Shown: positions 8,777 through 30,101 of the stretch, piece by piece
Layout of the letters: each line of letters opens with the position of its first letter
How positions within the stretch are numbered: position 1 is the stretch's first letter
NCBI GenBank assembly: GCA_013166835.1
Contig: JABLTI010000011.1
Coordinates: 1 to 47,869, forward strand
Direction: 5' to 3'
Length of the DNA: 47,869 nt
DNA from: Promethearchaeati archaeon
Lineage (GTDB): Archaea > Asgardarchaeota > Heimdallarchaeia > JABLTI01
The notes under the pieces: model-generated
Database searches by the model: none
Seen by the model: only the letters and a program-made list of their open reading frames with translations
What the model was told of the DNA's origin: nothing
Translations under genes and position numbers: made by a program

Positions 8777-9895
8777 TCAAATCGTAATGAAAATAAGACC
8801 CATTGTAATTAGTGCGAGAATAAAGGAAACCAAAGAAACAATGCCCATAGAAGCAACGATTTCTTGTTCTTTCAGCGGTTGTTTTGCTACAAGCCATCTA
8901 GTATAAGTTAAAGGAGCGTCTTCATTAGGGTTTGCAGCAATTTCCACGCCTTCTAATTTCCCATCTTTTTTATGTTTAATTACCATTGTAGGGCGTTCCT
9001 TAATTTCTCTTCTTTCTCTGAGACCTTTTACACTATTTATTATTTGAAATGAATTCATAATGTGAGGCATCATAGCAACAATAATAATAATTTCAATTCG
9101 ACCAAAAATTGCAATGAGAGCTACCACAGCTCCAATAGTCAAGCTACCCGTATCACCACAGAATATTTTTGCAGGATATTTGTTAAACCAGAAGAAAGCT
9201 AAGAGACTACTAAATAGTAGGATTGATATAATTAGACCGGGAAAAGTTACTATACCTTTGAAATAGAAAATGGTGGTTGCTATAATTCCTACAGCTGAAA
9301 CTGGTAAGATTGTAATGGGAGTAGAACCGTTCATAACATCTAACATATTAGTAGCGTTAGATAGCACTGTAATAGCGAAGGGAACAAGAAGCCAATAAAT
9401 AATTGTAATTCTAACTTGACCTATAAATGGCAAATAGGGTTTAGGGTCAAATAATAATAACCCACCATCCGAAAGAGCGGGATTTGCAATGGTTTGCCAA
9501 ATAAGAATAGGGATAGCAGGGATAAGTAGGAGGAAAGGTTTTGAGATGGCACCTAATGCTTTTAGATCATCCCAGATTCCGATTAATCCTACTATGAGAA
9601 TAACTAGAGTAGCAACTGTGAAATGCTGCCAATAATTCTCCCTAAAAATGAATATACAACAAAATGAAACAATAGACATTACAATAACTAAACCTACTCC
9701 TCCCATTTCAGCTACTCTTGGTCTATCTGCTTTGTGAACATCGTGGCCAAAAACTCCTTTTTTCAAGAAAAACTTACTTAGATACCAGGTTATGAAGAAC
9801 GTGGCAAGAAAAGCAAATACTGCTATTATTACTAACCAAATCTTGTCCATTAATTCCATGAAGACCACATTCAGATAATTCTCGAAGTTGAACAT
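8777..9895 (-). CDS. aglH: UDP-GlcNAc:dolichyl-phosphate GlcNAc-1-P transferase (AglH/Alg7, glycosyltransferase family 4)
   Basis: GHDVHKADRPRVAEMGG, GIWDD, NATNMLDVMNG and FNKYPAKIFCGDTGS motifs in a polytopic membrane protein. Confidence 0.85.
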   Translation of the reverse strand: MFNFENYLNVVFMELMDKIWLVIIAVFAFLATFFITWYLSKFFLKKGVFGHDVHKADRPRVAEMGGVGLVIVMSIVSFCCIFIFRENYWQHFTVATLVILIVGLIGIWDDLKALGAISKPFLLLIPAIPILIWQTIANPALSDGGLLLFDPKPYLPFIGQVRITIIYWLLVPFAITVLSNATNMLDVMNGSTPITILPVSAVGIIATTIFYFKGIVTFPGLIISILLFSSLLAFFWFNKYPAKIFCGDTGSLTIGAVVALIAIFGRIEIIIIVAMMPHIMNSFQIINSVKGLRERREIKERPTMVIKHKKDGKLEGVEIAANPNEDAPLTYTRWLVAKQPLKEQEIVASMGIVSLVSFILALITMGLIFITI

Positions 9896-10106
9896 ATTTT
9901 GTGTAATTAAAAAACTTTTGTTGCTAAGCAGCTTTCATCCAAGTTTTCAAAGTAGTTATAAATGGAATTAAGGATAAAACTCTTTGTTAAAAGAAGAGCT
10001 AGAAACTTGAAAAACTATTTAACTATCAAAAGAACAAGTAAAATGCTTATTTTTAGCAAAGAATAGAAATTGAGATTTGTGTTTAAGAAAAAGAAGGTAA
10101 AATAAA

Positions 10107-11969
10107 GTGACCAAACAAGTAACCAAAATGCTACTGAGTGGTAATGAAGCGTTTGCTCGTGGAGTTTTGGAAGCAGGAGTTGACATCGCAGCAGCATATC
10201 CAGGAACACCCTCAACTGAGATTATGGAAACAATAGCTCATTTTGGGAAAGATACCGGAATGCATGCGGAATGGTCAATTAATGAGAAAATAGCTTTTGA
10301 AGTAGCTTTAGGTGCTTCATGGAGTGGGTTACGTTCATTTACTGCAGCAAAACATGTGGGATTAAATGTTGCAGCAGATTCTTTTTTCACTGCCGCCCTC
10401 TTCGGTGGAATGAAAGGAGGATTTGTTATGGTTATTGCAGATGACCCGAGCTTTCACTCGAGCCAAAACGAGCAAGATACCAGAATGTATGCACTAGCTG
10501 CTCATGCAATTTGTATGGAACCATCAACCCCACAAGAAGCATTAGATATGACAAAATACGCTTATGAATTCTCTGAGAAATGGGAATCCATGGTTGTTAT
10601 TCGATCAACCACAAGATTAAGCCATTCAAGAGGACCAGTAATTTTAGGGGAAATCCCAAAAAGAGAAACCAATAAGGGAGAATTCATAAAAGACCCAGCA
10701 AAATTCGTTTGCTTGCCAGGAAACGCAAGAAGAACAAAACCACTTCTCTTGGCAAAAATGGACGAGATTAAAGATTACTCGAGTAAATCACAGTGGAATG
10801 TAGTGGAAAAAGGAAAAGATCCCCTACTTGTAATTACTTCTGGAGTATCATACTTGTATGTGAAAGATTCAGTGCAAGAAATGGGAATTGATCCGACCAT
10901 CTATAAGATTGGTCTAAGCAATCCAATGCCAGAAGCAAAAATAATCGAATTATTAAAAGAACATCCTGAATGTCTAATTGCTGAGGAAGTAGAACCATAC
11001 TTCGAGCTAAAAGTGAAGGCACTAGCAGCTGAGAATGGAATCAAAGTCAAGATCTATGGTCGAAAAGAAAAAGTAATCCCAATTTCAAATGAATTGAATC
11101 CATTAATTCTGAAAGAATCATTATCAAAGGTAATGAAGAAAGAATTTGAAGCAGTTGGGAAAGGACTTCCAACACAAACAGAAATCAATGAACTATTACC
11201 AAATAGACCACCAGAATTGTGTGCAGGATGCCCTCATAGATCAACATTCTATGCAATAAAGAAAGCAACAAGAAAACGACAAATAAAACCAATAATGCCA
11301 GGAGACATAGGTTGTTACACATTAGGATTCATGGCCCCACTAAACGCAGTCGATACAACAGTAGCAATGGGAGCATCAATTGGCATTGCAAATGGACTAG
11401 CACATGCAACAGACCAACAAATAATACCAGTAATAGGAGATTCAACATTCTTCCACACAGGAATACCAGCACTAGTAAATGCAATAGTGAACAAAGCAAA
11501 ATTCGTGCTAGTGGTAATGGATAATCACCTAACAGCCATGACAGGTGGTCAACCCACCCCTGAGCTTGGTTACGGTGCTTTTGGTGAACCTGCTGGGGTT
11601 GTTATGATTGAGCAAGTTTGCAAAGGTATTGGTATTAAGAATTTGTGGATTGTTGATCCTTATGATCATGATAAAACCATTGAAGTCATGGGTGAAGCGC
11701 TTGATTGTAATGATCTCGCGGTTGTTATCTCAAGGAGAGATTGTGCTTTAGAATACAGCAGGAAAATGAGACGTGCCAAGGAAACAATGGATACTTATTA
11801 CACTGATGAGGAAGTTTGCATTGGTTGTCGAACCTGTGTCAGAGATTTTGCTTGTCCAGCAATAACCTTTGATTATGAGAAGAAGAAATCACACGTTGAT
11901 GAATCCGTGTGTGTGGGCTGTAGTGTTTGTCGCTCTATTTGTCCCTATGATGCTTTTACTAAAAGGTGA
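10107..11969 (+). CDS. iorA: Indolepyruvate:ferredoxin oxidoreductase subunit alpha
   Basis: SGNEA, YPGTPSTEI, KHVGLNVAAD, SSQNEQD, RPPELCAGCPHR, GDIGCY, TPP-binding GDSTF and two C-terminal 4Fe-4S motifs (CIGCRTC...CP; CVGCSVC...CP). Confidence 0.96.
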   Translation: MTKQVTKMLLSGNEAFARGVLEAGVDIAAAYPGTPSTEIMETIAHFGKDTGMHAEWSINEKIAFEVALGASWSGLRSFTAAKHVGLNVAADSFFTAALFGGMKGGFVMVIADDPSFHSSQNEQDTRMYALAAHAICMEPSTPQEALDMTKYAYEFSEKWESMVVIRSTTRLSHSRGPVILGEIPKRETNKGEFIKDPAKFVCLPGNARRTKPLLLAKMDEIKDYSSKSQWNVVEKGKDPLLVITSGVSYLYVKDSVQEMGIDPTIYKIGLSNPMPEAKIIELLKEHPECLIAEEVEPYFELKVKALAAENGIKVKIYGRKEKVIPISNELNPLILKESLSKVMKKEFEAVGKGLPTQTEINELLPNRPPELCAGCPHRSTFYAIKKATRKRQIKPIMPGDIGCYTLGFMAPLNAVDTTVAMGASIGIANGLAHATDQQIIPVIGDSTFFHTGIPALVNAIVNKAKFVLVVMDNHLTAMTGGQPTPELGYGAFGEPAGVVMIEQVCKGIGIKNLWIVDPYDHDKTIEVMGEALDCNDLAVVISRRDCALEYSRKMRRAKETMDTYYTDEEVCIGCRTCVRDFACPAITFDYEKKKSHVDESVCVGCSVCRSICPYDAFTKR

Positions 11970-12598
11970 AGAAGATGACTGATTTGAAGAAATCTTATCA
12001 AATTGAAATTGCCGGTGTTGGTGGAACTGGTGTTCTTACCGCTGCTGCTCTTATTGGTAATTCTGCTCTTATCCAGGACATCTATGTTGTTCAGAGTGAA
12101 ATTCACGGTATGGCTCAACGAGGTGGTGTTGTCAACACTGAAATCCGTCTTGGTCCAGTTAGTGGTCCGCTCATTCCGGATGCTGGTGCTGATGTTCTCC
12201 TTAGTTTTGAATTGGGTGAAACTGCTCGGGCTGTTAGGAAAATTAAGCCTAAAGTCGGCTATGTCATTATGAACAGCCACATTATCGTTCCCCCAAGTCT
12301 TGGTATTAAGAAAGGAGCAAAATATCCCGAAGCTGACAGCATTTTAGCTTTGATTAAACCGTATTCCGAGAAGGTTTTCCTAATTGATGCCTTTGAACTT
12401 GCAAAAGAAGCTGGTGATTTACGAACTCAGAACGTTGTATTGTGTGGTGCATTATTCGCTATCCCTGATTTTCCACTCACAATAGAATCCCTTAAGCAAG
12501 CCTTAAACATCCAATTCAGAGGAAAAGAGAAAATTATTGCTACAAATATGAAAGCATTTGAATTAGGCTATAATAAAATGAAAGAATTGATGAAGTAG
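11966..12598 (+). CDS. iorB: Indolepyruvate:ferredoxin oxidoreductase subunit beta
   Basis: AGVGGTGV, SEIHGMAQRGGVV and NVVLCGAL; overlaps the iorA stop. Confidence 0.95.
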   Translation: MKKMTDLKKSYQIEIAGVGGTGVLTAAALIGNSALIQDIYVVQSEIHGMAQRGGVVNTEIRLGPVSGPLIPDAGADVLLSFELGETARAVRKIKPKVGYVIMNSHIIVPPSLGIKKGAKYPEADSILALIKPYSEKVFLIDAFELAKEAGDLRTQNVVLCGALFAIPDFPLTIESLKQALNIQFRGKEKIIATNMKAFELGYNKMKELMK

Positions 12599-12668
12599 GG
12601 CAAAAACCCTATTTCAACATATTTATTTTTGTTAACAACTTGTATTTTGTTAGTGTACATGTTAGGAG

Positions 12669-13355
12669 TTGGAAGTCATTTTAATTTTAGATAAGTATCT
12701 TGATGATTCGAAAGTGGAAATCACCTTTGAAGCAGGAATAACGAATATGCATGTTGATGAGTTACTTTTCTTCAAAGACATGGAAATCCCTGATTATCTA
12801 AAATTGCTGTATCAACAATCCAATGGTTTTCTTCTCGAAAGCGAGTACTTTTTGGACGATTTAGATGACCCATCTCATTTTCGATTGATCTCTTGTGATA
12901 ATTTGTTTTTCACCAGTAAAAGATTGAACCTATTACCGGACAAGCGATTCATTAGATTTGCTGAAAATGAGGAAGATGCTCTCTATCTTCTTGACATGGA
13001 AAATTTGGATCCAGAAGGCAATCCTCTTATTTTACTTAGTATGCCTAGTTACAAATTTAATATTCCATTAACTAATAATATCGAAGTTTTACTCGAGGCC
13101 TCTTGTTTAGGCATCTTAGGATTGATAGAAACCTTCGGATTAAAAGAAGGTAAACGAGTGCCCCAAGTCCCTCAAAGGATGTTGAAAAAGAAGAAGAGAA
13201 TCCTTCCAATTCTCAAAGAATTCTTTCTAACAGCAAAAAGAGAATTCGATTTAATAGACACGTGGCATCTATCACCTAAAGCCAAGAAAAACATTCAGAT
13301 GAGTATTGCTATTTGGTTTAAAGGTTTGAAGAGCCTATTATCAGTTTTTAATTAA
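12669..13355 (+). CDS. SMI1/KNR4 (SUKH)-like domain protein
   Basis: EIPDYLKLLYQQSNGF resembles the SUKH lPxdYxxfl...nG core; followed by FIRFAENEEDALYLLD...GNPLI. Confidence 0.55.
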   Translation: MEVILILDKYLDDSKVEITFEAGITNMHVDELLFFKDMEIPDYLKLLYQQSNGFLLESEYFLDDLDDPSHFRLISCDNLFFTSKRLNLLPDKRFIRFAENEEDALYLLDMENLDPEGNPLILLSMPSYKFNIPLTNNIEVLLEASCLGILGLIETFGLKEGKRVPQVPQRMLKKKKRILPILKEFFLTAKREFDLIDTWHLSPKAKKNIQMSIAIWFKGLKSLLSVFN

Positions 13356-23272: not shown

Positions 23273-24808
23273 CTAAAAATCATAAATTTGCGAGTATTTC
23301 TCACCAGTGGCTTCTATGAAATACTTGGCAGAGAATTCTTTCCCTGTAACATTCTTAATTAAATCAAGAGGATCGTAGAGGTTTCCTTTATTACGAATAT
23401 TTGTATTTAACCAACCTAGAATATTTGTTAAATTACCATTTTTCATTTGGTCCTTCCACTCAGGAATGTCTTTAGTTAATTGGGTTTGAAATTGCCCATT
23501 GTAATAACTTCCCAAAGCATATGTTGGGAAATAACCAAACAACCCCCAAGCATAATGAGTATCTTGGAGAATTCCTTCAGTATCATTTTCGATGTCAATA
23601 TCTAAGTATTCCTTCATTTTTTCATTCCAGAATGATGGTAATTCAGACACTGAGAGCTTGTCTGCGAATAGTTCCTTCTCCAATTCATATCTTAGTATGA
23701 TGTGTAATGAATAGGTAACTGGATCCGCATGTATTCTAATCTTTGATGGAATTACTTGGTTAACAGCATGAATAAATGGTTGTAATTTTACATCGTCAAA
23801 GAGTCCTTTAGTGAGCTCTTTGAATCTTGGCAAATAGAATTCCCAAAATTCGGAACTTCGACCAATAATATTTTCAATAAATCTTGCTTGACCTTCATGC
23901 ATAGCAGCAGAAGATGAAGAACCAATTGGCTGATATTTGAATTTAGCGGGATAATTTTGCTCATATAGAGCATGACCACATTCATGCATATTTGCGAAAA
24001 ATGAATCAGTAAAATCTTTAGTATTATAACTAACGGTAATTCTTACATCATCGAAATATCCAGTGGAGAATGGGTGAACAGCAACATCTATTCGACCACC
24101 CTTTAAATCATATTGAACTATATCAGCAAGATCATGAGCAACATTCCTCTGAATATCAATTGGACATTCTCTTAGAATCAAAGAGCTATCTGGTTGATTT
24201 GGGGAATCAACACATGCTTTAATGATTGGAATCAAACCTGCTTTGGCTTCTTGAAAGATTTTATCATAGATTTCTTGGGTAAAGCCTCGCTCATAATTAT
24301 CGAGTAAAACATCATAGGGATCCATATCAGGATTAAGATAGGCTGCTTGCTGCTTCTTCAAATCTATCATTTTCTCAAGTTCTTTTACATAAATAGAATA
24401 ATCAGCTTTTGATTTTGCTGCCTTCCATTTTTGTGTGGTAAGAGCACTATGTCTTGTTAATTCTTGAGCAAAGGATGTTGGAATTTTTGTAGCTTTATCA
24501 TAATTCCTCTGGATAAGGACAATATTTCTTTTTTGAACATCTGAAAGTTTGTCGAAATCTTTGTGAAACTGGATTTCTTTCAACAAAGAACCAATTTTTG
24601 GATGAGTATTACGTTCATGAATTAACCCACTCATAAGAGATAATTCTTCGCCACGTTGCTGGGCACCTTTCTTTGGCATCATAACTTCAAAGTCCCATTG
24701 AATTTGCCCACTAACATTTCTAAGAAGAAGAATCTCTTTATATTTAGCAAGGAGCTTCTCATAAAGATTGATTTTTCGTACAACTTTAACCAACTTACAT
24801 TTCTCCAA
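23273..24808 (-). CDS. Carboxypeptidase, family M32 (tandem paralog)
   Basis: HPF, DDVRIT, HECGH, HEGQAR, IRIHAD, GILQDTH and GYFPTY. The start codon is uncertain by a few codons. Confidence 0.95.
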   Translation of the reverse strand: MEKCKLVKVVRKINLYEKLLAKYKEILLLRNVSGQIQWDFEVMMPKKGAQQRGEELSLMSGLIHERNTHPKIGSLLKEIQFHKDFDKLSDVQKRNIVLIQRNYDKATKIPTSFAQELTRHSALTTQKWKAAKSKADYSIYVKELEKMIDLKKQQAAYLNPDMDPYDVLLDNYERGFTQEIYDKIFQEAKAGLIPIIKACVDSPNQPDSSLILRECPIDIQRNVAHDLADIVQYDLKGGRIDVAVHPFSTGYFDDVRITVSYNTKDFTDSFFANMHECGHALYEQNYPAKFKYQPIGSSSSAAMHEGQARFIENIIGRSSEFWEFYLPRFKELTKGLFDDVKLQPFIHAVNQVIPSKIRIHADPVTYSLHIILRYELEKELFADKLSVSELPSFWNEKMKEYLDIDIENDTEGILQDTHYAWGLFGYFPTYALGSYYNGQFQTQLTKDIPEWKDQMKNGNLTNILGWLNTNIRNKGNLYDPLDLIKNVTGKEFSAKYFIEATGEKYSQIYDF

Positions 24809-24924
24809 GCGGATTAGAATAAATGTAATTTTAAGTATTTCATTGAGACTGAATTGTCCATCTTAATGTTCAAATTACCAAAAGGAATTTAATTAAGACA
24901 AAAGTTAATTTCACAAAAAACAGT

Positions 24925-25296
24925 GTGAGAAGCAACTTGACTCCAGAAGTAGATGAAGGACCAACTGATTATATTAAATCAAGTAACGCAAGTAAGAGAG
25001 CGATTCTAGAACAATTACTCGAGAGAAAAGCGTTCGATGAGGAAAGTGCAATAGAGGAAACAGAACTAAAAATATCAAAATATGATATGTACGCATTAAA
25101 TGAACTAGTAGTAGAAGGGAGAATACACTCAGATATAAGAGGAACAGTAGCATACTATTACCTAAATGAGTACTATAAACCGGTCAAGAGCTATCGAAAA
25201 GAAGTGGTAATGGGATTAAGCATACCAATACTGATTTTTCTAGTAACCATAATTCTAGCAGGAATGATAGCAATAATAGTGATGTTCTTCAGATAA
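24925..25296 (+). CDS. Small tail-anchored membrane protein with possible winged-helix N-terminal domain
   Basis: Soluble region (ALNELVVEGRIH...YYYL) followed by one C-terminal TM helix. Confidence 0.6.
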   Translation: MRSNLTPEVDEGPTDYIKSSNASKRAILEQLLERKAFDEESAIEETELKISKYDMYALNELVVEGRIHSDIRGTVAYYYLNEYYKPVKSYRKEVVMGLSIPILIFLVTIILAGMIAIIVMFFR

Positions 25297-25369
25297 GAGA
25301 AAAAACAAAAACTAGCTATTAAACGAAAGATTCAAAAAGAAAAAAGAAGCGAAAAAGAATATAGACCCA

Positions 25370-25446
25370 GGGCGGGTGATTTAGCTCGGTATAATGCCTG
25401 CCTTACTAGCAGGATGTCGCCGGTTCAAATCCGGCCTCGCCCACCA
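25370..25446 (+). tRNA. trnV: tRNA-Val(TAC), CCA encoded, no intron
   Basis: Acceptor stem GGGCGGG/CTCGCCC; anticodon arm CCTGC-CTTACTA-GCAGG; T arm GCCGG-TTCAAAT-CCGGC; discriminator A plus CCA. Confidence 0.93.
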
Positions 25447-25472
25447 TTTTCCTTTCGTTTTTTGTTTTCTTA
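25447..25472 (+). terminator. Archaeal-type oligo(T) terminator tract after tRNA-Val
   Basis: TTTTCCTTTCGTTTTTTGTTTTCTT lies directly 3' of the tRNA. Confidence 0.55.
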
Positions 25473-25522
25473 TAAGAATTTTAATATTGTAACTTCCCTA
25501 TTATATTCTAGGGAAAGGAGTT

Positions 25523-26713
25523 GTGTGTATGGTTTTAGGTAAGAATAAATCAACACGACCAGAATTAGGTGTTTTATTTTTATTCTTCTTAGTTTTGGGT
25601 TTACTTGTTTGTTCGAATTCTCTTCAAACCTATAGCGTTGCCAACCCTGAGAATTCTCCTAGTGAGGAATTTGCTTTCACGGAAATTGGTCAATGGATTG
25701 CTGAAGAGGGTGTGTATGCTCTTGATGTGGCTATTGATGGTGACCTCGCTTATGTTTGCACGGGAGATTATGTTGCTATTTTGGATGTCTCAGATCCAAC
25801 TGAGCCGTCTTTACTTGGGAAATTCAATCAATTTGGTAGTTATCAAGGGGTGATTCCTTGGCCCGAACAAGTTCTTGCTTTTGGTGATTATATTTTTGTT
25901 ATTGCTTACTGGCACGATTATATCTATTGTTGGACGAACAAAATTATGGTTCTCGATGTCTCCGATCCATCCAATCCCTCCCTTGTTCAAGAGTTTAATG
26001 TTCAAAGATTAATCTATGACATAAGCCTTGTAGACAATTTTCTTTATGTTACTAGTAGTGGTGATTTTAGGATTTATAATGTTGAAGATGCAAATTCTCC
26101 TTTTCTTTTGGGTAATTTTTCTGCAAGTGGTTTTTTCCCTTCAGCAATTGGAATTCATGGTTCTTATGCTTTCCTTGGTTCTTATTCTAAAGGTTATTTA
26201 GTGCTGGATATTTCCATTCCAACGAATCCTTTTATTGTTAAAAATTGCACTGATTTCTCTATTACTAGAATTCATTTTGAGGAATCAATTGTTTATGCTC
26301 TTATAAAACCTACTGGTTATAGTTCTTCTGGGAGAGATTTTGCTATTTTCAACCTTACAGATTCATATAATCTTGTTGAGAGAAATCTTTTTCACGTTTC
26401 CGAAGAAAATTGGGATTTCATTTTTTCTGATGGTTACATCTACATGAAGACTTATAGTTTCGATTTTTGTGTTTTAAATGCAACTAATTTTTATCATCTT
26501 GAGTTTGTTTATCAATCTAATGAAGAGAAATTAGATGCGCAAGGTTTTGCGATTGTCGGAAATGATTTTTATCTTGCAGCTGGAGCAGAAGGTCTGATAA
26601 TTTATCAAGTGAATTATCCCCCGATTACAATTACCTTGAATCAATCTGCTTTTCTTATTTTCATTGTTAGTGTTTTTGCATGCGGTATTTTCATTAGAAG
26701 AAAACGAAGATAA
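25523..26713 (+). CDS. Cell-surface LVIVD-repeat (beta-propeller-like) protein with C-terminal membrane anchor
   Basis: Signal peptide; repeats VAILDVSDPTEPSLLG, IMVLDVSDPSNPSLV, FRIYNVEDANSPFLLG and YLVLDISIPTNPFIV; C-terminal TM helix plus RRKRR. Confidence 0.88.
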   Translation: MCMVLGKNKSTRPELGVLFLFFLVLGLLVCSNSLQTYSVANPENSPSEEFAFTEIGQWIAEEGVYALDVAIDGDLAYVCTGDYVAILDVSDPTEPSLLGKFNQFGSYQGVIPWPEQVLAFGDYIFVIAYWHDYIYCWTNKIMVLDVSDPSNPSLVQEFNVQRLIYDISLVDNFLYVTSSGDFRIYNVEDANSPFLLGNFSASGFFPSAIGIHGSYAFLGSYSKGYLVLDISIPTNPFIVKNCTDFSITRIHFEESIVYALIKPTGYSSSGRDFAIFNLTDSYNLVERNLFHVSEENWDFIFSDGYIYMKTYSFDFCVLNATNFYHLEFVYQSNEEKLDAQGFAIVGNDFYLAAGAEGLIIYQVNYPPITITLNQSAFLIFIVSVFACGIFIRRKRR

Positions 26714-28772: not shown

Positions 28773-30101
28773 TTGCTAGAATCTTCCACTCAAGAAAAGA
28801 AAGAGAATTTGCATCTCAATGGCAACAGAAGAGGTATTCTCTGGTTAATTTCGATGTTTACTACTGCGAACATTAACATCTTTATGCAGTTCTATCCTGC
28901 TTTTGCTTATCTCTACGGTGTTTCTAAAGCGGCTCTTGGTTTTCTGACTTCTATTAGAAATTTGATTAGCGGTCTTTTCCAGGGATCCATTGGTCGATTG
29001 TCGGATAAAATAGGTCGAAAGAACATTCTTATCATTGGTTTCATTCTTAGTTTTCTGATTCCTCTCCCTTTGATTTTCTATCGAGCTCAGTGGTTTCTTA
29101 TATTGACTTCAGTCATTCAGGCACTTTCTGTGAGTATTATTCTTCCTTCTTGGAATGCGGTGTTAGGAGATGTCACTCAACCTAGTTTCAGAGCAACTTT
29201 TATTGGGAGAATTACATCAGTTGCTCGAATATTTTCTGTTACTTTAACTCTAGGTCTTGCTGGTATTTTTGCAATTATTGAAAGTAAATATAATAATGTC
29301 CTTACAATTTTTGGTAGAGTTCATTACATTGGTTCTAACACCCAATTTGGCATTGTTTGGATCATGGCATCATTTAATGCTTTACTTTGCATTGCCTTCA
29401 TTTTTTTCATGAAAGAAACTCACGTTGTTTCTGAGGAAAAGCGAAAAGAAATCCCTAAAATGTGGGTTTCACTGAAAGACAAGAGTTTTCGAAAATTCTT
29501 GATTATTAATTCTGTTTATGGTATCGCCATGTCTATTATTTGGCCAATTAATCCCATAGTTTTAACGGATGAAAATCTCCTGAATCTTGGCGAAAGTTTT
29601 TCTAAATTAGCTTTACTTACTTCTGCATTTGCAGTTTTTATTGGATTGACTACAATTATTGGTGGTAAAATTTGCGATAAGATTGGTCGCAAACCTACTA
29701 TTATCATTTCTATAGTAATTCTGATTCTCTTCCCTGTAAGTATGATCCCTGCAGTTGCAACTAATAGATGGGCTTTACTCATTGTTTCCCGAATGGTAGG
29801 GGGAGTTGGCACTGGTTTGAATTTTGTCGCGATTAATGCCTATACTTTGGATATGGCGCCCCAGGAATTGATGGGAGCATATAGTGGTATGCGCGAAATG
29901 TTTTATGGTATCACCACTTTTATTGGATCACTTATTTCTGGCTTCATTGTTGAGGCATTGGATGTAAAATTCGCTTCAATAGGCTATACTAATTCTATTC
30001 AAGTTGCAATCATTGCCATGTGTATAGGCACGACTATTCTTCGAATTATGGCTGCTACGGGTTTTCTTTTCATTGATAAGGTCAAAGTTGCAAGTGATTA
30101 G
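28773..30101 (+). CDS. MFS transporter
   Basis: GRLSDKIGRK and GKICDKIGRK motifs; about 12 TM segments. Confidence 0.9.
   Translation: MLESSTQEKKENLHLNGNRRGILWLISMFTTANINIFMQFYPAFAYLYGVSKAALGFLTSIRNLISGLFQGSIGRLSDKIGRKNILIIGFILSFLIPLPLIFYRAQWFLILTSVIQALSVSIILPSWNAVLGDVTQPSFRATFIGRITSVARIFSVTLTLGLAGIFAIIESKYNNVLTIFGRVHYIGSNTQFGIVWIMASFNALLCIAFIFFMKETHVVSEEKRKEIPKMWVSLKDKSFRKFLIINSVYGIAMSIIWPINPIVLTDENLLNLGESFSKLALLTSAFAVFIGLTTIIGGKICDKIGRKPTIIISIVILILFPVSMIPAVATNRWALLIVSRMVGGVGTGLNFVAINAYTLDMAPQELMGAYSGMREMFYGITTFIGSLISGFIVEALDVKFASIGYTNSIQVAIIAMCIGTTILRIMAATGFLFIDKVKVASD

Follow-up and report, generated by a model that had tools for sequence, protein, structure and literature searches.

Codon usage in iorA changes sign at a single codon

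What makes the synonymous codons of a conserved gene pass abruptly from A-endings to T-endings with no change of strand? The question is raised by a window of 47,869 nucleotides, the whole of contig C176 of a metagenome-assembled genome (MAG) of a Promethearchaeati archaeon (G000; congeners and relatives are labelled G001-G011 and G026). On its + strand lie an iorA-like gene (10107..11969, 620 aa; alpha subunit of an indolepyruvate/2-oxoacid:ferredoxin oxidoreductase) and an iorB-like gene (11966..12598, 210 aa; POR gamma-type subunit). The initial annotation, made from the letters alone, had named both genes and described the switch. Both open reading frames (ORFs) carry the domain set expected of IorA and IorB (Pfam POR_N, TPP_enzyme_C and Fer4 in the first; POR, E = 3.8e-38, in the second), which upholds the names, the substrate specificity being presumptive. 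Here we report that the switch sits at one fixed codon of iorA, that three paralogues and a subclade of the genus have it anchored to this same codon, and that it belongs to a genome-wide class of strand-biased blocks whose sharp switches have one polarity only.

Fourfold-degenerate codons (GCN, ACN, GGN, CCN, CTN, GTN, TCN and CGN) were counted along the locus. Between 11281 and 11543 there are 47 of them, 39 ending in A, 4 in C, 3 in G and 1 in T, while none of the next 29 (11544-11726) ends in A and 21 end in T, 5 in C and 3 in G. This recount agrees with the switch as first placed, at about 11544. The boundary falls between an ACA at 11541-11543, the last A-ending fourfold codon, and a GGT at 11544-11546, the first T-ending one; no further A-ending fourfold codon occurs until a TCA at 11730. 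To the left, an A-rich, T-poor block of the + strand (10460..11543) strengthens towards 11543, with A/T counts of 17/6, 18/5, 21/5, 24/4 and 26/0 in successive groups of 30 fourfold sites, from an onset near 10460-10600 to a peak of 26 A and no T in 11351-11507, directly left of the switch. In this block Ile favours ATA and NNY codons move towards C. To the right, a T-rich, A-poor block (11544..12265) takes in the 3' end of iorA and about the first 100 codons of iorB, and to that extent the T bias said to recur in iorB is upheld; the counts per 30 sites are 5/18, 6/12, 2/24 and 1/20, then 10/14, in balance, after about 12290. A three-state hidden Markov model (HMM), run on + strand fourfold bases of the whole of G000, called the two blocks at 10604-11543 (103 A and 14 T among 139 sites) and 11546-12250 (9 A and 74 T among 110). 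Balance is regained by about 10400 on the left and 12290 on the right, the bias fading within about 1 kb. Because few stop codons are left on either strand once A or T is depleted, such blocks create spurious long ORFs, two of which lie in the T-rich block (11945-12280 on the - strand, and 12003-12272 on the + strand in another frame).

The strength of the switch was assessed with a step statistic, D, taken over 40 fourfold sites on each side of a position. The iorA step of 58 is the maximum among 355,408 positions of the genome; the top step in 20 genome-wide shuffles was 34-40, and 10,000 synonymous-codon shuffles within iorAB gave at most 40, none reaching 58, so that the switch passes the shuffled-codon control that had been proposed for it. 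The fourfold background of G000 is balanced (A 149,008, T 153,104), with a gene-level skew of mean -0.01 and standard deviation (SD) 0.16. Codon positions 1 and 2 are alike in orthologues with and without the switch, in line with the claim that protein content is not its cause. A short inverted repeat, GGTGG-TCAAC-CCACC (11544-11558), had been noted at the switch; it is present in the sequence, but it is missing from the carriers G007, G005 and G009 and plays no part in the switch. No significant long hairpin, inverted duplication of the arms or longer repeat was found around the switch, only short chance matches, and no known RNA family scored near threshold in 9800-13000.

We also considered that two populations had been chimerically joined at a conserved k-mer by assembly or binning. 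The window is a MAG contig (G000 has 260 contigs, 3.56 Mb, 33.7% G+C, estimated completeness 85% and estimated contamination 6.8%), blocks of this kind are enriched near contig ends, and in run X5 the Logan contigs break off at 11505 and begin again at 11547. Logan contigs of three other runs nevertheless bridge 11544, in X8 (11392-11603, with 2 differences), X10 (11442-13123, about 95% identical) and X12 (11450-11645), and hence the switch is not a chimera. Moreover, the same switch is found in separately assembled G004, G005, G007 and G009 and in two further paralogues, which makes an artefact extremely improbable. The runs that contain this DNA, of which X1-X8 have at least half of its words, are sediment metagenomes, and no RNA run is among the 22 listed. 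These results confirm that the switch at one fixed codon of iorA is real and highly non-random.

The switch is anchored to one codon in paralogues and relatives

By codon counts and alignment, the centre of the switch (11517..11546) consists of the codons of conserved D472 N473 .. T476. M478 T479 G480, just past the thiamine pyrophosphate (TPP)-binding motif. Residues D472, N473, T476, M478, T479, G480 and Q482, which follow the GDS..DN motif, are invariant in a 14-sequence alignment, and the centre is the gene's most conserved stretch.

The iorAB operon is present in G000 as three paralogues (C176, C41 and C80), whose proteins are 37-39% identical. The C41 iorA switches at the same aligned codon, with A/T counts per 40-residue bin of 13/5 and 13/1, then 2/13 and 2/15, and the C80 copy switches weakly there (10/5, then 2/13). 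Nine related genomes, eight of them congeneric and one from a second genus, have orthologues of iorA at 74-95% identity, and the synteny of iorAB with ftsZ is kept. In family 1 the switch at residue ~480 is carried by G000, G004, G005, G007 and G009, is weak in G006 and is absent from G001, G008, G010 and G011. In family 2 it is carried by G000, G002, G003, G004, G005 and G009, is weak in G010 and is absent from G008 and G011; the switch of family 3 is weaker. The orthologue check that had been suggested therefore came out in favour of a fixed position, the same codon being used in three paralogues and several species.

FtsZ identity to G000 is 99% in the carriers G003 and G007, 92% in G005 and 91% in G004, and 90%, 89% and 88% in the non-carriers G008, G001 and G006; of the carriers, the comparison covers G002-G005 and G007, G002 giving a paralogue match only (42%). 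The distribution is compatible with a single origin of the switch in a subclade of closer relatives, the FtsZ margin being narrow. Protein trees show no long branch for the carriers, and the blocks have no excess of amino-acid divergence. Together with the kept synteny and the unchanged codon positions 1 and 2, the trees speak for evolution in place. A survey of 79 distant iorA homologues, drawn from many phyla, found nothing comparable: the left-minus-right skew difference is at most 0.75, compared with 1.57 here, and -0.08 to 0.34 in those from AT-rich genomes. One of the 79, from Candidatus Saliniplasma sp. (L115), is alone in having a moderate A-to-T change at the motif (28 A/15 T before, 10 A/26 T after).

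Strand-biased blocks occur throughout the genome

The HMM called 77 blocks in G000, of 0.1-2.3 kb (median 433 bp), which hold 1.4% of fourfold sites; 43 are coding-T, 22 coding-A and 12 mixed, spanning both orientations. Read on the T-rich strand, the blocks have fourfold frequencies of A 0.105, C 0.126, G 0.075 and T 0.693, against a background of 0.40, 0.10, 0.10 and 0.40 (A, C, G, T). Coding-sense skew is positively correlated between same-strand neighbour genes (r = +0.32, n = 1416) and negatively between opposite-strand neighbours, both convergent (r = -0.32, n = 519) and divergent (r = -0.23, n = 466). In opposite-strand pairs with both genes extreme, the + strand sign was kept in 19/19, the strand calls being backed by Pfam domains. 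On C77, three adjoining A-rich HMM blocks of the + strand (72.7-77.1 kb) run across four genes of alternating orientation. The bias thus follows the DNA strand and not the reading direction.

The shift is also uniform across codons. Each of the eight fourfold families has T at 0.57-0.75 in coding-T blocks and, as the mirror image, A at 0.55-0.78 in coding-A blocks. The balance between C and T at the NNY codons of coding-T blocks is unmoved (0.73 vs 0.75), and on the T-rich strand G goes down and C up besides the shift between A and T. With the NNY balance unmoved and the shift mainly between A and T, the spectrum is transversion-type, from purine to pyrimidine and mostly A:T to T:A. A translational codon-usage domain was rejected as a candidate because the sign follows the DNA strand (19/19) and the shift is uniform in the eight families. 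No general 5'->3' A-to-T gradient exists within genes, the trend being slightly the reverse. In G000 contigs with at least 1500 fourfold sites, the AT skew ranges from -0.15 to +0.21 and correlates with fourfold GC skew (r = 0.36); this positive correlation indicates that the background asymmetry is likewise one of purine versus pyrimidine and not the usual G+T versus A+C.

Spacers take part in the bias. Those in A blocks are skewed by +0.2 to +1.0, and three of the four in T blocks by -0.13 to -0.62; most of 23 in-block spacers checked share the skew of their block, with 3 slightly reversed and 2 near zero. Block edges fall within 60 nt of a gene boundary in 33/140 cases, as against 11% of random sites, and 76% of them are over 60 nt into a gene. 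Blocks are also frequent at contig ends, 23/77 lying within 700 nt of one, a zone that makes up 10% of the genome. At one such end, the EF-2 gene of C255 is cut inside its GTPase domain at the contig start, which is the exact start of a T-rich block; its other half was sought at the contig ends of G000, none of which has it.

Some gene classes are associated with one sign. Translation genes lean to T and C endings, and the genes for thermosome, EF-2, EF-1alpha and aIF5B either lie in coding-T blocks or show the same leaning. T-rich blocks also contain more than their share of repeat proteins (LVIVD, TSP3), whose blocks are long, especially in G026, a closed relative. A scan of 400 kb of that genome gave 19 blocks with 5.7% of fourfold sites, among them a coding-T block of 3.5 kb in an ORF of more than 1574 aa (G026:C1 3097185-3100725) and three adjoining coding-T blocks, 6.4 kb in all, in giant TSP3-repeat and beta-helix surface proteins (G026:C1 3138209-3144648). 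Internal repeats may contribute to the bias of these long stretches.

Sharp switches have one polarity and centre on conserved sequences

Where blocks touch in G000, the + strand reads A then T in all five pairs, namely iorA, its C41 paralogue, a tRNA-Val locus, an MBL-fold gene on C208 and the SHMT gene on C6. The same order was found in 4/4 adjacent pairs in sampled stretches of G005 and G010. Among steps with D of at least 40 there are 6 A-to-T and 0 reverse in G000, and 3 and 0 in the 400 kb of G026, which has one weaker T-then-A adjacency (D = -34). The A-then-T order is its own reverse complement, which means that the T-rich strand runs away from the centre on both sides. Sharp switches therefore have one polarity only, and the strand-symmetric, two-sided pattern that the initial annotation had described at iorA holds in the other pairs as well.

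The second pair in the window surrounds a tRNA gene. An A-rich block (24491..25369, + strand) comprises the 3' end of a minus-strand gene, a plus-strand ORF of 123 aa (24925-25296; 31 A, 2 T) and a spacer (25297-25369; 45 A, 8 T); the HMM block, 24491-25561, has 57 A and 9 T among 84 sites in genes on both strands. The centre is a tRNA-Val gene (TAC) found with ARAGORN at 25370..25446 on the + strand. Beyond it, a T-rich block of the same strand (25447..26545) includes a spacer (25447-25522; 18 A, 39 T) and a gene for an LVIVD-repeat protein (Pfam LVIVD), with 15 A and 88 T among 131 sites in the HMM block 25570-26545. The whole switch (24491-26545) has a step of 50, which ranks third in the genome. 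When the HMM was run on the stretches around iorA in four relatives, including G005, it called no matching second pair, and the orthologous tRNA-Val locus was not located. The + strand is T-rich from 25.5 to 30 kb through genes of both orientations, and in an MFS transporter gene at 28862-29663 the fourfold sites lean to T (e.g. 3 A/20 T and 6 A/20 T per 30), below the HMM call.

Some other tRNA genes behave in the same way. The tRNA-Val gene, with a flank statistic D of +39, is the top of 14 scorable tRNA genes in G000, and 3 of these 14 have D of at least 20, a value reached by 0.7% of the 2442 ordinary intergenic gaps; D averages 7.9 for tRNA genes and 0.5 for ordinary gaps (Mann-Whitney p = 0.014). 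Divergent, convergent and tandem gaps are alike (mean D 0.13, 1.02 and 0.48). A tRNA-Pro gene in G005:C33 is also at a switch centre. Read by eye, the MBL-fold centre lies at HGHGDH codons, which we take to be the HxHxDH motif of this fold, and the centre in the gene that we take to encode SHMT adjoins a conserved stretch. No sequence motif common to the centres was convincing by eye among the five, and no formal motif discovery was run. These data show that centres sit at conserved sequences, including tRNA genes. Since conserved stretches and tRNA genes are where diverged genomes share identity, homologous exchange can act there.

Recombination and rearrangement cluster at the iorA centre

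Evidence of exchange was found at the centre itself. G004 and G005 are 93-100% identical over 2.9 kb (one of 29 windows of 100 nt is at 85%) up to iorA codon ~466-473; past codon ~473 identity drops to 66-76% for about 300 nt and then stands at 85-87%. The divergence step, at codon 473/474, is within about 10 codons of the switch. The divergent G004 tract has no near relative among the sampled alleles (0.58-0.73 identity) and is more A-poor than its G005 sister, and in the full-length G004 gene the invariant Thr T476 is replaced. G004 has in addition a truncated iorA copy (G004:C280, L029, reverse strand ~1040-2104), which starts at T479-G480 (478/479) and is near-identical to the G005 allele; it stands directly after the stop of an unrelated gene, by eye an Asp-rich repeat membrane protein, and a full iorB follows. 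The iorA trees are star-like, and that of the C-part groups G004:C280 with G005. Fourfold divergence is even along the gene, without discordant halves, between G000 and G007 and between G000 and G004 or G005.

In G008 the family 2 iorA, which has no switch, is split over C97 (L027) and C99 (L028) by an element inserted at codon 470/471, about 8 codons before the switch position; the element ends in an ORF with a TnpB/Cas12f-type zinc ribbon. An IS605/TnpB-centred model was rejected as a general cause, G000 having just 2 TnpB matches, neither of them near a block. An intein or homing-endonuclease idea, raised by the presence of MCM, RFC, aIF5B and EF-2 among the block genes, was likewise dropped, no inserted element having been found.

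The break in the contigs of run X5 also falls at this point. Taken together, recombination and rearrangement events cluster at the iorA centre. Different histories of the two gene halves had been named as a finding that would reduce the switch to simple recombination; such histories are seen only for G004 against G005, and they do not explain the composition, because both diverged alleles are pyrimidine-rich on the same side. Our verdict is that recombination is involved at the switch rather than excluded.

As for the wider setting, a Pfam scan of the neighbours of iorAB gave a GT4 glycosyltransferase, FtsZ and one unknown ORF. The gene content of G000 is that of an Asgard-type archaeon, with Gtr1/RagA and Arf-family GTPases, MCM, topoisomerase VI, thermosome and aIF5B; the assembly lacks the large ribosomal-protein cluster (no L2 match), and no more than 20 tRNA genes were found.

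A candidate model and its rivals

The above findings lead us to favour, tentatively, a model in which exchange or repair tracts run outward from conserved-sequence anchors with a strand-specific purine-to-pyrimidine bias, a mechanism and a chemistry that we infer. The conserved stretch past the TPP motif would be an anchor at which exchange or repair between diverged copies in the population repeatedly starts or ends. On each side of it, the strand that leads 5'->3' outward has T, and to some extent C, in place of A, and to some extent G, at almost all unconstrained sites, the protein being unchanged. Tracts leading outward would be made or corrected in a strand-specific manner that favours purine-to-pyrimidine transversions. 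Over a long time purifying selection would drop the amino-acid changes, while silent and spacer sites would be driven to T on the outward strand. Such a model would account for the sharp centre and for a bias that grows, in iorA, as the centre is approached, for two sides that behave independently, as in the one-sided G004 tract, for the position of centres at conserved sequences and for the assembly breaks.

Several observations weigh against this model. Pooled spacers are less skewed than fourfold sites (0.17 vs 0.74), which is not what a purely neutral mutational bias predicts. Single blocks outside pairs have no sharper edge on the predicted centre side (36 blocks), and many blocks may therefore not be half of a centred structure; of the 23 contig-end blocks, 16 have the polarity expected of a centre at the end, which is only suggestive. 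Some coding-T blocks probably have other causes, such as their being in translation genes or repeat proteins. No enzyme or pathway is tied to the process, in which breaks, nicks and tracts are all presumptive. A resected double-strand break with damaged 3' tails predicts the opposite polarity, if single-stranded DNA turns T-rich, and a bias from NucS-type mismatch cutting, given the specificity that we assume for it, predicts enrichment of A+C, where A+G is seen.

Local outward DNA synthesis from the centres agrees with the polarity just as well and remains the main rival, though we regard it as rather unlikely. It could take the form of recombination- or R-loop-primed restart, of nick-primed strand displacement or of initiator DNA made by a low-fidelity primase-polymerase, and the outward strand (displaced, lagging template or newly made) would gather purine-to-T changes over the first ~1 kb. 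The origin-like polarity, with the + strand A-rich on the left and T-rich on the right, is the sole one among sharp steps; the bias is strand-bound, also in spacers, and in iorA is strongest beside the centre; and the purine-to-pyrimidine spectrum fits purine loss from single-stranded DNA. Such loss, followed by insertion of A opposite the gap, is established chemistry. Yet the bias fades within about 1 kb, unlike replichore-scale skew, G and C act as purine versus pyrimidine and not in the replication-type G+T versus A+C manner, origin-type repeats are absent at the centre, single blocks lack edge asymmetry, and initiation at one codon in three paralogues is hard to explain. The enrichment of tRNA genes as centres (3/14 vs 0.7%) brings in transcription instead, tRNA genes being very strongly transcribed: strong two-way transcripts from the centre, by tRNA read-through or antisense or from an internal two-way iorA promoter, would leave non-template lesions that escape transcription-coupled repair and become A->T, as in adenine-adduct signatures. 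Sharp divergent starts with fuzzy ends would yield a single polarity, thermosome, EF-2, EF-1alpha and aIF5B are in coding-T blocks or lean to them, and block edges are about twice as common near gene boundaries as at random sites. Against this, as judged by gene proxies, the sign of the bias is independent of gene orientation (43/22/12 blocks), gaps do not differ in general between divergent, convergent and tandem arrangements, 76% of edges fall more than 60 nt within genes, the within-gene 5'->3' trend is slightly opposite, the iorA centre has no obvious TATA-like element by eye, and a two-way promoter kept at one codon of paralogues 37-39% identical would be surprising. We judge a transcriptional origin unlikely, though antisense units may be present.

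The exchange seen at the centre could also be the whole story, the two halves having been imported by homologous recombination from donors of other strand context, with crossovers forced into the most conserved stretch. The discordant halves of G004 and G005, which break at codon ~473, and the C-part tree that joins G004:C280 to G005 are what such a plain mosaic would leave, as are similar edges on both sides of blocks and the block enrichment at contig ends, and crossovers between diverged DNAs would naturally fall in conserved stretches and tRNA genes. We hold a plain mosaic to be quite unlikely. No donor with an 8:1 A/T ratio was found, contig-level skew here being at most about 0.2 and no sampled genome being so biased overall, and carriers show neither a long branch nor extra amino-acid divergence. 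One polarity in 7 independent adjacent pairs has p ~0.008 under random assignment, and a codon and polarity shared by three paralogues would need repeated coincidence. In addition, the diverged right-side alleles are all pyrimidine-rich, which argues that the bias belongs to the locus and not to the donor. A codon shared by three paralogues points, on the other hand, to the protein or the message, and with it to selection on mRNA or decoding, in which a stretch of A-ending (U34-read) and then T/C-ending (G34-read) codons would tune ribosome speed, cofactor loading or mRNA stability near the TPP motif. The T part does resemble the T/C-ending, G-poor usage of translation genes, and spacers are less biased than fourfold sites. 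They are biased all the same, however, the bias follows the strand through genes of both orientations (19/19), is equal in all codon families and is found around tRNA genes and between convergent genes, and no switch occurs in the 79 iorA of other taxa, AT-rich ones included, nor in some congeners with the same motif; we hold selection to be improbable.

Returning to the outward-tract model, we put forward in its most general form, and with some reserve, the possibility that an undescribed DNA process of this genus starts at conserved points (enzyme-motif codons, tRNA genes) and writes purine-to-pyrimidine changes, mainly A->T, onto the outward strand over some 0.3-1 kb to either side. Such a process would resemble biased gene conversion in a strand-antisymmetric form, or else the writing would be the footprint of intragenic local DNA synthesis. 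The site-anchored, bidirectional and strand-asymmetric process suggested in the initial annotation is the best-supported class of interpretation, without the inverted repeat as its site and without a chromosomal origin. A chromosomal origin is at odds with a bias that decays over about 1 kb and is not sustained over tens to hundreds of kb. The centre, moreover, is inside iorA, and orc1/cdc6 is not among the named neighbours.

Relation to known systems

As far as sequence alone can tell, the starting points of DNA transactions are marked mainly by switches in strand composition, which have so far been read at the scale of replichores or transcription units. The iorA switch is of about 8:1 and sharp within one or two codons, in a conserved gene, in three paralogues and in one subclade of the genus. 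If our reading is true, initiation sites of recombination, repair or replication in uncultivated relatives of eukaryotes could be read from sequence alone. Should the cause be recombination, repair or initiation, the blocks would give a handle on the DNA metabolism of slow-growing, mostly uncultivated Asgard-type archaea and would be a new source of extreme local codon bias. They can also mimic signals of horizontal transfer or of 'optimal codons', and they coincide with assembly breaks. Within the part of the literature that is open to searching, we found no account of kb-scale strand-biased blocks or intragenic AT-skew switches in Asgard archaea, nor a description of such a biased process for archaea.

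A diversity-generating retroelement target was considered and rejected, since 10400-12700 contains no repeat pair and the change is confined to silent sites over ~1.8 kb and not to a short variable region; no search for a reverse transcriptase was made. Purine loading of mRNA-synonymous strands (Szybalski's rule; Lao and Forsdyke) shares the purine/pyrimidine axis and acts mainly at third codon positions. It follows the transcribed sense, however, whereas the blocks described here are pyrimidine-rich in the coding sense in 43 cases and purine-rich in 22, and in 12 they extend over both orientations. Breaks can be flanked by strand-coordinated mutation clusters, as in kataegis and break-induced replication, and a transcriptional strand bias is known from adenine-adduct signatures (COSMIC SBS22). 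The likeness lies in strand-coordinated changes that switch strand at a break and in A->T transversions with a strong strand bias. Those are single-event somatic clusters at all codon positions, unlike the saturated, selection-filtered pattern conserved between species that is seen here, and the polarity here is opposite to that expected from resected 3' tails.

Two phenomena come nearest. Jumps in strand skew at replication origins are known from GC and AT skew in bacteria and archaea and from the upward jumps of mammalian 'N-domains'. As in iorA, strand composition changes sign abruptly, T exceeds A on the outward strand and the sharp jumps are one-directional. The iorA switch differs in reaching over about 1 kb and not a replichore, in its ratio of about 8:1, in setting purine against pyrimidine and not G+T against A+C, and in lying within a gene, at a codon shared by paralogues and without origin repeats. 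Recombination hotspots have polarity gradients, as at yeast ARG4 and HIS4, and biased gene conversion is known in its GC-biased form. Their effects likewise reach some hundred bases to either side, shift unconstrained sites and go with exchange junctions at the site. Biased gene conversion favours G:C over A:T symmetrically on both strands, in contrast to a change from A:T to T:A that is antisymmetric between the two sides. Origin-type skew jumps and hotspot gradients with biased conversion are thus the nearest known phenomena, from which the iorA switch is set apart by its scale, its axis (A:T to T:A), its antisymmetry and an anchoring inside the gene that paralogues share.

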